Source of the DNA: Callorhinchus milii
Taxonomy: Eukaryota
Direction: 5' to 3'
DNA length: 64,000 nt
Assembly (NCBI RefSeq): GCF_018977255.1
Contig: NW_024704742.1
Span: 76,634,001-76,698,000, forward strand
The notes under the pieces were generated by a model, which was given only the letters and a program-made list of their open reading frames with translations, searched no databases and was not told the DNA's origin. A program made the position numbers and the translations under genes. Positions 18,380-27,369 of the stretch are shown one piece after another (the stretch's first letter is position 1; every line of letters starts with the position of its first letter).

Positions 18380-18657
18380 TCAGCCACTGTTGAGCCTGAG
18401 GTAGCCAATACGGCTGATCACTGGGTCCAGGAAACTGTTTAGTGTCCCAAAAATAAACAGTATATGGTTGATTGATTCGGGAAGTTGCTTTTTGTTTATC
18501 ATTGCTGGAAAAAAATTGTACCAGAATCCGAGCACATAGTATGGGGTCCAGCAAATGATGAAGGTGCTTACGAGGACAATGGTCATCTTTAAGGTTTTCA
18601 TTCGCACTTTGGGAATGTAGTTTCTGGTACATCTCAATCCCATGTCTTTGGAGATAA
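18380..18657 (-). CDS. GNRHR2: Type II-class GnRH receptor, coding exon 3 (atypical TM7 end, very short tail)
   Basis: Acceptor ttgtttgttttccAG; (I)ISKDMGLRCTRNYIPKVRMKTLKMTIVLVSTFIICWTPYYVLGFWYNFFP...LPESINHILFIFGTLNSFLDPVISRIGYLRLNSG*. Spliced total 1041 nt = 346 aa plus stop. Confidence 0.9.
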
Positions 18658-19778
18658 CTGGAAAACAAACAATTAATGTAACCATATAATGACGAAGCTT
18701 CAAAATTCAATTGTGAAAGTAATCATATGTTATTCAGAACAGAAAACTTTTCTATACTTTCCAGAGGGTAAATCTGTAACAACAGCTTCCATTTATTTAG
18801 CACCCTTTATGAAAGATAATGTCTAGGAGCATTTCACAGGTCGAACGCCAAGCAAGGGAGAAAACAAGGGGGGACAGGGGCTGTAGTGGGGGGGTGAGGA
18901 GTGGCAGTTTTTAGACTGAATTTATAGACATATGGAGAGACGAGATAGAGGAGTTCCAGAAATTAGGAGTGTAGTACTTCATGGTGGTCATAGGAGGATT
19001 TAAAGGGAGATGGTTAAAGTAATTTTCGTACACTTATTAGAACATGGGACTATTGAGTCAGAGACCACAACAATATTTAAGAGCAGAATGGTTAAACATT
19101 TGAAGAGCAGCAATATAGAGTACAAGGGAAAACAGCACATAATTGAGAATAGGATATAGAGCTCTAGTAAAGAAGTTAGTATCAGCATTAAAGTGTCTAA
19201 TGGCCTCCTTTTGTACTGTAATTAATTCCTGCCATTCTATAAGTCTGAATGATCAAAGGAAATACATGGCAGGTGAGTTAGCATCTGAGAAAGAAGAGAC
19301 GTGCATTACATCCTCTCTTAGATGTCTCCTTTCATGGCTGAAGATCTCAAACTTGTCTAATCATTGCTCATTATTCACTCCTCTGGAGATCATCCTTGTT
19401 GTTCTCCTCTGCACTAGATCTAGGGTCCAGGAAACCCCGAGTAGGCAATACTCTAGGTGAAGTATGACTACTAACATCTTACATTTATATAGTGCCCTTC
19501 GCACGGGGTAGCGTCTCGGAGACTGAGCAATTGCATAGTTTGATACTCAGCTGGAGAGAAAGGGGAGTTAAATGTAAACATGGTCAGAAAGGAAAGGCTT
19601 CAGCTACCATATGAAGACAGGTAAAGAGAGGGCATGATGGATGGATTGAGGCGAGGAGTTCCAGAGTTTCAAACCATAGTGACTGAAGGTACGGGCACCG
19701 ATGCTGAAGCAAATGAGTTGGGGGACACAGAGAAGGTCCAACTTGGCTGAGCAAAGGGGGAAGGTGGAAGAATGGGGT

Positions 19779-19985
19779 TATAATAATAATAATAAAATCC
19801 TTGCATTTGATATAGCGCTTTTCACGTCGGGAGGATGTCCCAAAGCGCTTCACAGAACACACTGTAAAGTGAATTGACTGTATATTTGTGGGCGAACGCG
19901 GCAGCCAATTGCGCACAGCAATGTCCCACAAACAGTCGTAGATTGAAAATGACCAATTTCTTATTGTTTTTGGAGGGATTATTTG
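19779..19985 (-). mobile_element. Young 5'-truncated SINE tail
   Basis: Nearly identical to 55372-55493; CpGs retained; (ATT)n tail. Confidence 0.8.
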
Positions 19986-23462: not shown

Positions 23463-24065
23463 TTTATCTAGCATAGTATCGCATCGTCAAAATGTCTCTA
23501 ATGATTCACAACATTTACTGTAAAGTGTAGAAACTTTGTACACTTAGACAAACATAGCAGCCAATTTGCTCCCAGCAATATTGCACAAACAGCCATGAAG
23601 TGAATGATGAATGTTATCTGGAGGATTGTTGGCCAGGATACAGGGAGAAACTCCCTTCTCTTCTCAAATAGTGCATGGATCTTCAACATTCACCTGAACA
23701 GATTGACTGGTTTAATGACTAGTCTGAAGGAGGCATCTCCAATAATAGTGTTCCCCCGGCCTGGACCATGGGGTCAAAGTCCCAATGTGGGGGCTATTGG
23801 GTGGGATGGGGAGAGGAAAGATGACCAAAAGCACGGACAAAGGAAAGGTCATTGGGAGTTAAAGTGTCTGTTTAAGATTTAAGATAAGATTTAAAGATAA
23901 GATGTTTAAGATAAGATTGATCATTCACTTCATGGCTGTTTGTGCAATAGTGCTGAGAGCAAATTGGCTGCTATGTCTGTCTAAGTGTACAAAGTTTCTA
24001 TATTTTACTGTAAATCTTGTGAACCATTAGAGACATTTTGACGATGCGATAATGTGCTAGATAAA
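23463..24065. repeat. Inverted repeat with 157-bp arms (23463-23619 and 23909-24065) and a 289-bp spacer
   Basis: By hand alignment the arms are reverse complements with about a dozen mismatches; both derive from a SINE tail. Confidence 0.9.
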
Positions 24066-26808
24066 GTGTCAAAAACATGCTAACGTCGAAAGCATTATTC
24101 TAGCATCTAAATAAACAATATTCAATTCCATTAATTCTTCATAATATTTTGACAAGTATTACTAAATTCCAAATGGGATACTTCTCTGTGTTACAGATCA
24201 GATCAACATAATTGATCAGATAGATAGATCACACTGTGTTATTTGAAAAATTTAATTTAAACATTTCCTAATCCTTACATTTTTAAGGTTAGTATCAGAG
24301 ACTCAATGGTTTTAAGTTGATTACATTTTGTGATTTTAATTCAGATTCCTTTCAAAGTTTTCAAAAATAAATTGTAAAATCATTTGAGGCTAAGGCTTCA
24401 ATTCAGAGGACATCAAATTGATTTGATTCATTTGATTGAAGTCTGTGGATTGCAAATTTTAAGAGGTGCATTCAAGTTCAAGCAAATAGCATCAAAATGC
24501 TATTCATCTAAATGTTGATGTAAAACAACTTGACGTTCCGTAGAACATGTTGTTGAAGAATTGCAATACTTAGTTGAAGATCTGCAGTCTTTCCATGGCA
24601 AACAGGAATGGAAAGAGTTATCCCATGCTACACAGTTAATACACATCTCATTTCTGCTCCCCCCTTAAGCATCAATGAACCTGAAATATAGGCACAAGTT
24701 GCTGTATTATTTATTGAATGTGCCCCTGGACCTATAGCTAATGCAGCAAACTGTCTAGCACAGACAATTTATTGGAAAGAATGAAATTCAATTGACTCAC
24801 TTGACAAAATTGACACTATTGGCAATTCAATCCAAAGACTAAAGTATGCTGAATTGATATCTGTAAGGTTTGATTTATTAAAGTAACATAGCCTTTATCT
24901 GTATCTGTGTGGAGTGAAGGTAAAATAATGTTACATTTAGTTTGTGACAAAATTGCTTTGATTTTAGCAGCAATTGCTAACAAGTGTGCAATAAACATCA
25001 GCGTTGATATGGCTGGGGTGTTATTTCTGGAGCACCTTGAGGAGGTCCTCTTAGGAGTCAGTTTCTTGTGGTGTCCAGGTTTAAGATTCCTGCTTCTCCT
25101 TGTATTGCATTGCATTGGTGGTGAAAGTTTTTCACCATGGGGGTGGGAGGGGGGGGGGGGGGTGAAGCCAGAGGTTGGGTGTGGGGGTGAAGTAGCGACA
25201 AAGACGCAGAGTGATTGCCGGGCTCCACTGACGCGTCCATCCTCACGATCGACGACAAGTATCCTCAAGGTGGAATCGATCGCTGGGGATTCTCACCTGG
25301 CTCAGGTTAAAGTAAAATCATCCCAAACACCAGTGACAGGAACACGAAAAGGGTGGTTTATAAACTGGTTGCATGGCACTTGAACTGCGTCAGGCTGACT
25401 CAGAGATGGGACTGTCTTATCACTGAACCAAGCTCACCATCGACAGAATATTTTTACTTTAGGGGCAATGGCACCAGAATAAATTTTAAGTGGGGGTGCT
25501 GAAACCCCAATCCTAGTGCTGTTGCTCCTCATCCCCCCGATTACCTCCCCCATTTGTCAGAAACTAACGTGATGGTAAATCATTTATCATCACACCAGCT
25601 TCTGACCAGTGGCAGAGGTAATAAGAGCATACTTGTGCCCCTAAAACATTTTAATATTTTACTCGGGGTGAAGGGGGGGGGCATTAGCCAAAGTTCTGCC
25701 GCTAATGTTCCATTGATCTACAATTAGATTCCATCAGATTAATTAGGTGGTTAATACTAGTTTGAAATAGTTTGGGATTGAATGATCTGCGTTATGCTAT
25801 GTTTATGGAAATGGGATGAGTTACATTTATGCCGTTGGATATAATTTGTAGATGAATATAAAGGGAAAACAGAATTCCTGTTGATTGGTGACGTATTTCT
25901 GGTTACCAGAAGAAGCCTCTTCTGTACAAATCCAAATTCTTTTTTAAGCAATCCCATTAAGAAATAAGAATTATATTCCTTGCATTTCATATACATATCA
26001 CATTGTCAAAACGTCTCAAAGTGCTTCACAGGATATATTGTAAAGTGTAATAACTTTGCATTTGTAGGCGAATGCCTATACCTGTAAATACTGCAACTTT
26101 CTTTCTATCTCTTGATCGACTTCAAGATCCTTACACTCGTCAACAAATCCCCTCATACCTGGCACCTCCCTACCTCCCTGACCTGCTTACTGCTCTCTCC
26201 AACCCTCGCCACCTCCGCTCGACTGGCTCTGTCCCTCATCCCCTCTGCGCCACTATGGAGCTCTCTCCCTCAATCCCTCTGCTTTGCCTTCTCCTTCCCT
26301 ATTTTCAGATAACGACAGAAGACCTTTCTATTTGACCGTGCCTACAGTCACCTCCCATTTCTCTACGTCTTGGCATCAGGCTCTGCCACTATTAAGCACT
26401 CTGAAGTAATGGGTGCTATACAATTGCAAGTTGTTGTTATTATCTTTTGTTGAAGGGTCCATATTGAACTGATTTGAATGCTCGCACACTATTTTCGATA
26501 TTGTTGTGCACACGTCGGCTAAGTGTATTTGCCTATCTGTCATACCACTGTACTACATTTTACAGACTATCCTGTGAAATCCTTGGGACATCTCAACATG
26601 TAAGGTGGTATATCAAGTGCAGGAATTATTATTATCAATAAACACATTAAAAAAAAAAGTTTGCTAAGTCCTTTTTTTTCCCAGGACAATGCTTCTTTAA
26701 ATAGCCAGGGTAACAGTCTCCTTCACATCTTGCTTGATGTTAACATCATTACATCCAGTCCCACTCCCCAGATAAAATGCGGCTTGTTGTATTTCTGGGC
26801 ATTATTAC

Positions 26809-27369
26809 CTGAGGTGTAGCCAAAATGACGCTGAGAGTCCAGGCGACCAGGAGCATGGTCCTGTTCCTCTCCTTGGCCCTGGTGATGGCCAACGGGTGCA
26901 GAATGGCACAGTAGCGATCCAGGCTGATCACCGCAGTGATGAAGGCGCCCGAGTACATGGAGAGCAGCTTGAGGAACATGAGGAGTTTGCAGGCCAGGTC
27001 TCCAGCATACCATTGCACGGTGGTGTTCCAGGCAGCGTCCAGGGGCATGACAATAAAAGTGACCAGCAGATCAGAGCAGGACAGGTTCAGGATCAGCATC
27101 CTCAGGTGGGACCGGCTGCCTCCTCCCTTGCTCCTCAGGGCGCTCCACAGCACGGTCAGGTTGAGGTAGGCGGACATGAGGAAGATGGCCAGGGTGATGA
27201 CCACCCTGACCTTGGCGGCTGCGGAGAAAGTGGGCAACAGGAGCTCGTTCTCCCCACCGGGAACACTGCTGTCCTTGGTGCTGAAAGCCCCATCGCGCTC
27301 CGAGCTCCCGTTACACCCGCTGCTGTTGTAGAGGGGGAAATCCCTGCTGAAGAGTAACGTGTGCTTCAT
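26809..27369 (-). CDS. GNRHR2: Type II-class GnRH receptor, coding exon 1 of 3 (exact subtype not determined)
   Basis: 561 nt = 187 codons; LPTFSAAAKVRVVIT...LSCSDLLVTFIVMPLDAAWNTTVQWYAGDLACKLLMFLKLLSMYSGAFITAVISLDRY...LATPQ. Asp2.50 (DLLVTF) is diagnostic of non-mammalian/type II receptors. Donor CAG|GTAATA at 26809/26808. The symbol denotes the class only. Confidence 0.93.

Follow-up and report, generated by a model that had tools for sequence, protein, structure and literature searches.

Conserved loss of Tyr7.53 and of the C-terminal tail in GnRH receptor subtype 2a, encoded beside the type I receptor gene in the chimaera Callorhinchus milii

Two published classifications of the receptors for gonadotropin-releasing hormone (GnRH) contain a lineage with which the gene described here can be compared. 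In the passages of Sefideh et al. (2014, PMC3912137) drawn on here, 'GnRHR 2a' is a receptor of the coelacanth only, lost in other vertebrates, and receptors 1a and 2a are not observable together; in those of Williams et al. (2014, PMC4232701), 'type IIa-1' comprises partial matches in chimaera and skate at the level of hidden Markov models (HMMs), and lamprey receptors are placed in the same group. These passages describe a tail as present in every GnRH receptor (GnRHR) subtype except type I, and the text of both papers, in the same sections, carries no remark on a short tail in 2a or on the absence of Tyr7.53 (Ballesteros–Weinstein numbering, counted from N1.50, D2.50, R3.50, P5.50, P6.50 and P7.50); alignments in their figures or supplements may display the short end. 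Here we describe a GnRHR gene on the minus strand of a 64,000-nucleotide (nt) stretch of the Callorhinchus milii genome, hereafter the window (assembly GCF_018977255.1, contig NW_024704742.1, positions 76,634,001 to 76,698,000), and the clade to which it belongs, which, by sequence and tree position, matches GnRHR 2a of the first scheme and type IIa-1 of the second. We consider it probable that this gene is the orthologue, in the chimaera, of a subtype that is ancient and has been maintained by selection, and that, beside its type I partner, it works as proposed below; its identity as 2a and the purifying constraint upon it appear, from the sequence comparisons, close to certain.

The three exons (Table 1), joined from their coordinates by script, lie within positions 27369-18380 and give a reading frame of 1041 nt, encoding 346 amino acids (aa) with no stop inside; both introns are of the GT-AG type. 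A previous reading made from the letters of the window alone (the sequence-only reading) had reported the three exons, their canonical splice sites and the 346-aa frame, all of which direct reading and the scripted join confirmed. Its codon positions for Ser7.53, Phe5.39 and Val6.29 proved exact, as did its count of 11 residues past DPVI, and the residues that it listed as retained are all present, namely R1.35, D2.61, W2.64, N2.65, K3.32, C3.25 with the cysteine of extracellular loop (ECL) 2, CWTPYY, Y6.58 and DRY. The joined protein is identical at every letter to XP_007890243.1 ('gonadotropin-releasing hormone II receptor-like', Callorhinchus milii), so RefSeq already contains this gene model. 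The Ensembl/UniProt model of the same gene uses a different exon-3 acceptor and ends at DPVI; we favour the RefSeq acceptor, because the orthologues retain the SKD/SKE motif.

Pfam family PF00001 (7tm_1; gathering cutoff 30.5 bits) scored 87.3 bits in exon 1, 27.8 bits in exon 2 alone and 39.7 bits in exon 3, and the best matches of the exon translations among the sequences of solved structures were GnRH receptors. Four of the five class A microswitches are present (N1.50, D2.50, DRY and CWTP) and the fifth, DPxxY, is broken by the replacement of its tyrosine with serine; the gene belongs to class A of the G-protein-coupled receptors (GPCRs), with one motif broken. Behind DPVI stand the 11 residues SRIGYLRLNSG and then the stop codon, so that the protein ends 10 residues past position 7.53. 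A (CA)n and then a (GA)n microsatellite lie directly 5' of the start codon (27385-27470), and the introns are interspersed with repeats (19670-19983, 21240-22180, 23440-24065 and 25950-26260) at which the summed contig depth of four sequencing runs is very high.

Orthologues were gathered by protein searches, in which exon 3 was the first query and the catshark orthologue the second, and by cluster look-ups. The resulting 27 rows represent 17 chondrichthyan species, paddlefish, three sturgeons plus Huso, and coelacanth; 24 contain the transmembrane helix (TM) 7 motif and 23 reach position 7.53, while the three rows without TM7 are partial or mis-built (Leucoraja, 237 aa; A. ruthenus RXM, 311 aa; A. 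sinensis, 482 aa). Tyrosine occurs at 7.53 in none of the 23 rows, where the residue is Ser in 14, Cys in eight (carpet sharks, whale and zebra shark, skates) and Asn in one (Mustelus), and all 23 carry GY at 7.56-7.57. In 18/18 chondrichthyan rows the protein ends at one common residue, the tenth past 7.53; the bony-fish rows have 16-23 residues after 7.53, except for the Huso model, which continues and looks like read-through. Two models of this set look like annotation errors: that of Huso huso (428 aa), the tail of which is not in the other sturgeons, and thorny skate XP_032874732 (629 aa, '5-hydroxytryptamine receptor 7-like'), in which an endonuclease/L1-like part (PF14529, PF03372) is joined N-terminally to a GnRHR 2a.

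An alignment of 66 rows (18 of the 2a clade, 45 tailed GnRHRs, two type I receptors and one from amphioxus) separates the 2a clade from the tailed receptors at several positions. Residue 5.39 is Phe and 6.29 is Val in 18/18 2a rows, against Asn and Ala, each in 44/45 tailed rows; 6.59, a further change in the pocket, is Asn in 14 rows (including the window protein), Cys in three and Val in one, against Trp in 44/45. At 7.53 the 18 rows have Ser (12), Cys (5) or Asn (1), and the tailed receptors have Tyr in 45/45; at 5.60 the 2a clade has Ser (14), Cys (3) or Arg (1), and the tailed receptors have Arg in 42/45. Tyrosine stands at both 3.51 and 7.57 in every 2a row, where the tailed receptors have, respectively, Gln (31), His (10), Arg (2) or Tyr (2), and Thr (41), Ser (3) or Ala (1), and one position of intracellular loop (ICL) 3 is Cys in the 2a clade and Arg in the tailed receptors. 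By contrast with these changes, D3.49, R3.50, W6.48, Y6.51, Y6.58, D7.49 and P7.50 are invariant in every row of the alignment, and D2.50, I3.54, Y5.58, R6.30 and CWxP are likewise invariant in the 18 2a rows. The tails of the tailed receptors extend 43-117 residues past 7.53 in 44/45 rows; the sequence-only reading had given Tyr7.53 together with a long Ser/Thr-rich tail as the norm for type II receptors, and the 2a protein of the window has neither. The 45th tailed row, a hagfish 'GnRHR 2' model of 348 aa, has six residues past Tyr7.53 and is either a truncated model or another tail-poor cyclostome GnRHR.

The orthologue comparison shows the deviations to be shared across the clade and not private to the chimaera. 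The absence of Tyr7.53 from all 23 rows that reach it, the shared chondrichthyan stop, and Phe5.39 with Val6.29 in every 2a row of the alignment indicate that these traits predate the split between cartilaginous and bony fishes, and a recent or lineage-specific event is not upheld. This split, like that between chimaeras and elasmobranchs, took place several hundred million years ago. For the one species pair compared, chimaera and horn shark, the 2a receptors are 79% identical and the type I receptors 73%, which argues that 2a is constrained at least as much as type I. As judged from these comparisons, the odd features of the gene are ancient, fixed traits of a little-studied subtype found in chimaeras, sharks, rays, sturgeons and coelacanth, and not signs of decay; the finding concerns a trait conserved in the family of an annotated gene, and not a degenerating or newly truncated receptor.

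In a maximum-likelihood tree of 40 rows (LG+C20+F+G4), the window protein falls into an eight-row clade of chimaera, five elasmobranchs, paddlefish and coelacanth with support of 100/100, and the order within the clade resembles that of the species tree. The vertebrate GnRHRs form a clade of 31 rows (100/98), outside which stand amphioxus and the other representatives, and a third clade, of bichir, teleost, bird and crocodile receptors, also receives 100/98. The 2a clade joins the tailed 2b/2c and cyclostome rows at 80/88. The window protein carries type II-side marks as well: D2.50 together with D7.49 (both in 18/18 2a rows), the ICL3 sequence SKDMGLRCT and a PES motif in ECL3. The type-2 ICL3 motif was taken as SKExxLR(R/C)S, as given in the sections of PMC3912137 used here, and reads SK(D/E)xxLRC(T/S) in 2a. 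The assignment to the type II side made in the sequence-only reading is thus supported by both the residues and the tree.

Compared with the coelacanth 2a receptor NP_001273666, the window protein is 69% identical and shares Ser7.53, GY, F5.39, V6.29, D2.50, the PES motif of ECL3 and an ICL3 of the form SKxxxLRC, but the chondrichthyan end is six to seven residues shorter. The subtype that was called coelacanth-only in 2014 (PMC3912137, in the sections cited) is here found at full length in 17 chondrichthyan species and in chondrosteans, is thus widespread in both groups, and in the chimaera lies 8 kb from 1a. The lamprey row of our tree lies outside the 2a clade, whereas the IIa-1 group of Williams et al. 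includes lamprey receptors. With the tailed type II receptors (the 2b receptors of sharks and teleosts, 'gnrhr4', and the Xenopus GnRHR, 9u4y) the window protein shares D2.50/D7.49, Y5.58 and the type-2 ICL3 motif, and it is 59% identical to horn shark 2b; they differ from it in having Tyr7.53, a long tail, N5.39, A6.29 and W6.59. Within the full-text searches made and the portions of the two classification papers covered, the subtype-wide loss of Tyr7.53 and tail, the adjacency of 1a and 2a and the apparent lack of a long-tailed GnRHR in the chimaera assembly appear to be unreported.

The second receptor gene of the window is a complete type I GnRHR of 332 aa on the opposite strand, with N2.50 and N5.58 and an end five residues past Tyr7.53, which groups with the type I receptors of horn shark and frog at 100/100. 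The two genes are convergent, tail-to-tail, and their stop codons are 8,011 nt apart. They have in common the three exons, the intron phases, an almost tail-free protein and the lack of a predicted or visible helix 8; they are only 41% identical, fall into separate clades, and differ in that type I has N2.50, N5.58, N5.39, A6.29, W6.59 and Tyr7.53, whereas position 2.50 of 2a is Asp and its Ser7.53 lies 10 residues from the end. The presence of 1a and 2a on one chromosome segment is what the local-duplication model predicts, as that model is set out in the parts of PMC3912137 consulted. When the 2a protein, horn-shark 2b and bichir 1b/c were searched against the chimaera assembly itself (991.5 Mb, 1762 contigs), no GnRHR-like gene besides this pair was among the matches listed, the next being intronless GPCRs of <=34% identity. 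The elasmobranchs have a long-tailed 2b ('gnrhr4') gene, which the chimaera may lack; subject to gaps in the assembly and to the limit of the match list, its complement of GnRH receptors seems to be two, both of them tail-poor.

Table 1. Exons of the two GnRH receptor genes and codons of the substituted residues (window positions; minus-strand features are given in the direction of reading).
Feature	Positions	Strand	Details
Exon 1, 2a gene	27369-26809	(-)	ATG 27369-27367; N-terminus and TM1-TM4; 187 codons; phase 0 donor CAG/gtaata
Exon 2, 2a gene	20505-20304	(-)	202 nt; ECL2 and TM5; acceptor ttgcag/CTT; donor GAGA/gtaagt, phase 1
Exon 3, 2a gene	18657-18380	(-)	ICL3, TM6, TM7 and 11-residue end; acceptor ttttccag/TT; TGA 18382-18380
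Ser7.53 codon AGC	18415-18413	(-)	Tyr in 45/45 tailed and 2/2 type I rows
Phe5.39 codon TTT	20406-20404	(-)	Asn in 44/45 tailed and 2/2 type I rows
Val6.29 codon GTG	18607-18605	(-)	Ala in 44/45 tailed and 2/2 type I rows
Type I GnRHR exon 1	853-1398	(+)	tblastn and reading
Type I GnRHR exon 2	2663-2870	(+)	tblastn and reading; intron phases as in the 2a gene
Type I GnRHR exon 3	10124-10368	(+)	tblastn and reading; stop 10366-10368

A model of the window protein built with AlphaFold2 on the 66-row alignment has seven helices, with a mean predicted local distance difference test score (pLDDT) of 79.3 and a predicted template modelling score (pTM) of 0.77; TM7 is modelled as one unbroken helix (residues 315-339) and the last seven residues as coil, with no separate helix 8. 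A Foldseek search with this model placed first the frog GnRHR (9u4y; 54% identity, TM-score 0.91 on the target), followed by the pig GnRHR (9u4w) and human GnRH1R (7br3). In the parts of PMC12207466 that we draw on, cryo-electron microscopy of the pig and frog GnRH-GnRHR-Gq complexes shows pGlu1, His2, Tyr5 and the peptide core of GnRH held by R1.35, K3.32, M3.36, T5.42, Y6.51, Y6.52, Y6.58 and F7.39; W6.59 touches Trp3 of the peptide in both complexes, L353, in the alpha5 helix of Gq, has A6.29 and I3.54 packed against it, and the receptor tail is invisible and was judged dispensable for coupling. Asn212 (N5.39) is named among the GnRH-binding residues in the passages used of PMC3912137. On this partial view of the sources, 10 of 12 GnRH contacts are kept in the window protein (R1.35, D2.61, N2.65, K3.32, M3.36, T5.42, Y6.51, Y6.52, Y6.58 and F7.39) and two are changed (N5.39 to Phe and W6.59 to Asn).

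The kept contacts suggest that the receptor would still bind a GnRH-type decapeptide; the loss of W6.59 and N5.39 probably alters recognition near Trp3 of the peptide, and affinity or selectivity may be shifted. Coupling to a G protein is probably kept through a remodelled intracellular face, in which the hydrophobic Val6.29 would take the place of Ala6.29 while D3.49, R3.50, I3.54, Y5.58 and R6.30 are intact, but its efficiency would be lowered or altered, because Tyr7.53 is absent. Tyr7.57, which lies on the same face a helical turn further down, and the regained Tyr3.51 are candidate compensators, although this is speculation. From the sequence features we rate the retention of ligand-driven G-protein signalling as somewhat better than an even prospect. 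As there is no phosphorylatable tail, desensitisation and internalisation are expected to be slow and arrestin-poor, as is described for type I receptors (PMC4232701, PMC3912137 and PMC12207466, in the sections cited).

Several points weigh against this view of the gene as a working 2a receptor. The support with which the 2a clade joins the tailed type II receptors is modest. The coelacanth protein (H3B0A3/NP_001273666) is inferred to be the 2a of Sefideh et al. from its motifs and tree position, and not from gene identifiers. In the human GnRHR, according to the part of PMC5662886 considered here, the Y323A mutant (position 7.53) is uncoupled and Y323C, an allele of hypogonadism, has decreased coupling, whereas Y322F at the same position in the mouse receptor increases coupling; thus, barring compensation, Ser or Cys at 7.53 is an argument for weak coupling. 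Loss of W6.59 and N5.39 may mean that the affinity for GnRH is low. In addition, the literature examined, as far as it was covered, contained no functional assay of any 2a receptor. We note that the human Tyr323(7.53)Cys allele of congenital hypogonadotropic hypogonadism is the wild-type state in 8/23 2a rows (carpet sharks and skates) and that, on the same partial evidence, it lowers coupling in a type I background, while in 2a further intracellular changes are fixed alongside the residue, and its effect may be compensated.

The origin of the short tail admits two accounts. The sequence-only reading had proposed an independent loss in the type II lineage, and the extent of the truncation agrees with this: five residues remain past 7.53 in type I, against 10 in the 2a of chondrichthyans and 16-23 in that of bony fishes, and the retained 2a end can be aligned gap-free with the helix-8 region of the tailed receptors. 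The differing truncation points and this gap-free alignment favour separate losses (tail lost INDEPENDENTLY?), and an independent loss in 2a is, on the aligned sequences, plausible. An approximately unbiased (AU) test nevertheless tolerated 2a and type I as one clade (log-likelihood difference 1.81, p 0.351), leaving room for a single loss common to both. Such a single tail-poverty event could have taken place if 2a and type I are sisters, or if their 3' ends were exchanged on one segment; the two tail-poor genes do adjoin, convergent and 8 kb apart, and the three main vertebrate GnRHR clades meet in the tree as a fork without a resolved order. However, the free tree joins 2a to 2b/2c, and D2.50, Y5.58 and a type-2 ICL3 motif mark 2a where type I has N2.50 and N5.58, as well as an unlike truncation point. 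We regard the shared loss as rather doubtful.

A second alternative concerns function: a conserved, non-canonical receptor might bind its ligand, or pair with the adjacent type I receptor, and activate no G protein, serving as a decoy, scavenger or modulator. The complete absence of Tyr7.53 would fit such a role, as would the coupling defects of the human Y7.53A and Y7.53C mutants (PMC5662886, in the part considered), the clade-specific intracellular changes at 5.60, in ICL3 (Arg to Cys), at 6.29, at 7.53 and at 7.54-7.57, and a helix 8 that is not predicted by the model. Against it stand the residues of the coupling face and the CWxP motif that are invariant in 18/18 2a rows, the regained Tyr3.51, and the increased coupling of the mouse Y7.53F mutant, which suggests that the position tolerates change; it is weakened further because the assembly search listed no other non-type-I GnRHR among its matches. 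We judge a silent receptor unlikely, and slightly less credible than the shared loss of the tail, and retain the signalling 2a receptor as the preferred reading. An early-stage pseudogene, drifting after functional loss, as the sequence-only reading had also considered, is contradicted and most improbable: nothing speaks for it except that a switch residue near-universal in class A is gone, as is the tail, whereas the frame of 346 codons is open, the splice sites are canonical, identical residues are fixed in chimaera, sharks, rays, chondrosteans and coelacanth, chimaera and shark are 79% identical, and the branches inside the clade are short while its stem is long (0.52).

An error of assembly or annotation, an indel or a missed exon masking a normal DPxxY and a long tail, was checked with contigs from another sequencing run (X1), which span 18100-19807, 20190-20630 and 26331-27389 and so cover all three exons. 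They differ from the window at 18887, 26459 and 26795 and by a one-base gap at 26649, all non-exonic, with no coding indel; the contig over 18100-19807 has no gap and a single, intronic difference (18887), and that over exon 2 has none. Since the contigs differ from the window in introns, they are not a copy of it, although the same individual or project may still be their source. Overall, we found 0 differences in 1041 coding nt and 11 substitutions with four gaps in about 5.8 kb of listed non-coding sequence, a comparison that, with about two coding differences expected, has no power as a test of polymorphism. An artefact of this kind is likewise contradicted and scarcely credible: only the continuation of the Huso huso submitter model past GRTPS speaks for it, whereas the X1 contig crosses the 3' exon gap-free, the stop is at the identical position in 18/18 chondrichthyan rows from separate genome projects, and a search for a relic tail in the frames 3' of the stop, after 18380, gave only short, stop-ridden stretches with no tail-like frame. 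Three further runs, guessed to be RNA, have a contig depth that is low, patchy and alike in exons and introns, and repeat-derived joints dominate in them, masking any joint between exons; they have no bearing on expression.

The tail-less mammalian GnRHR has long been seen as a peculiarity, a view that the cases in chimaera, skate and coelacanth had already weakened (Williams et al. 2014; Sefideh et al. 2014; in the passages cited). The position of 2a directly beside type I is physical evidence for the proposed tandem pair preceding the two rounds of genome duplication (pre-2R). Throughout the subtype, Tyr7.53 and the tail are missing and two GnRH-contact positions are changed; 2a is therefore a natural experiment, a peptide GPCR without the NPxxY tyrosine in which the wild-type Cys of some sharks is a human disease allele, and a candidate for a shifted ligand or transducer preference. 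It is conceivable, if on balance doubtful, that 2a has worked without the Tyr7.53 switch from a time when cartilaginous and bony fishes had not yet parted, with Tyr7.57 and Tyr3.51 as substitutes, and that the chimaera runs its GnRH system on two tail-poor receptors; if this is true, slow, arrestin-independent GnRH signalling would be the ancestral vertebrate mode and not a mammalian speciality.

The remainder of the window, from 29.5 to 64 kb, consists of repeats and retroelement fragments, and no other gene was recognised there by reading of its open reading frames, made without a Pfam search. About 5 kb of low-complexity tandem repeats (43200-48450) read as GA-rich 'ERERE' frames on one strand, while the opposite strand yields proline/serine-rich 'PLTASPAPHCQPC'-like frames, and reverse-transcriptase-like retroelement frames lie at 54067-55230 and 62654-63418, both on the minus strand.

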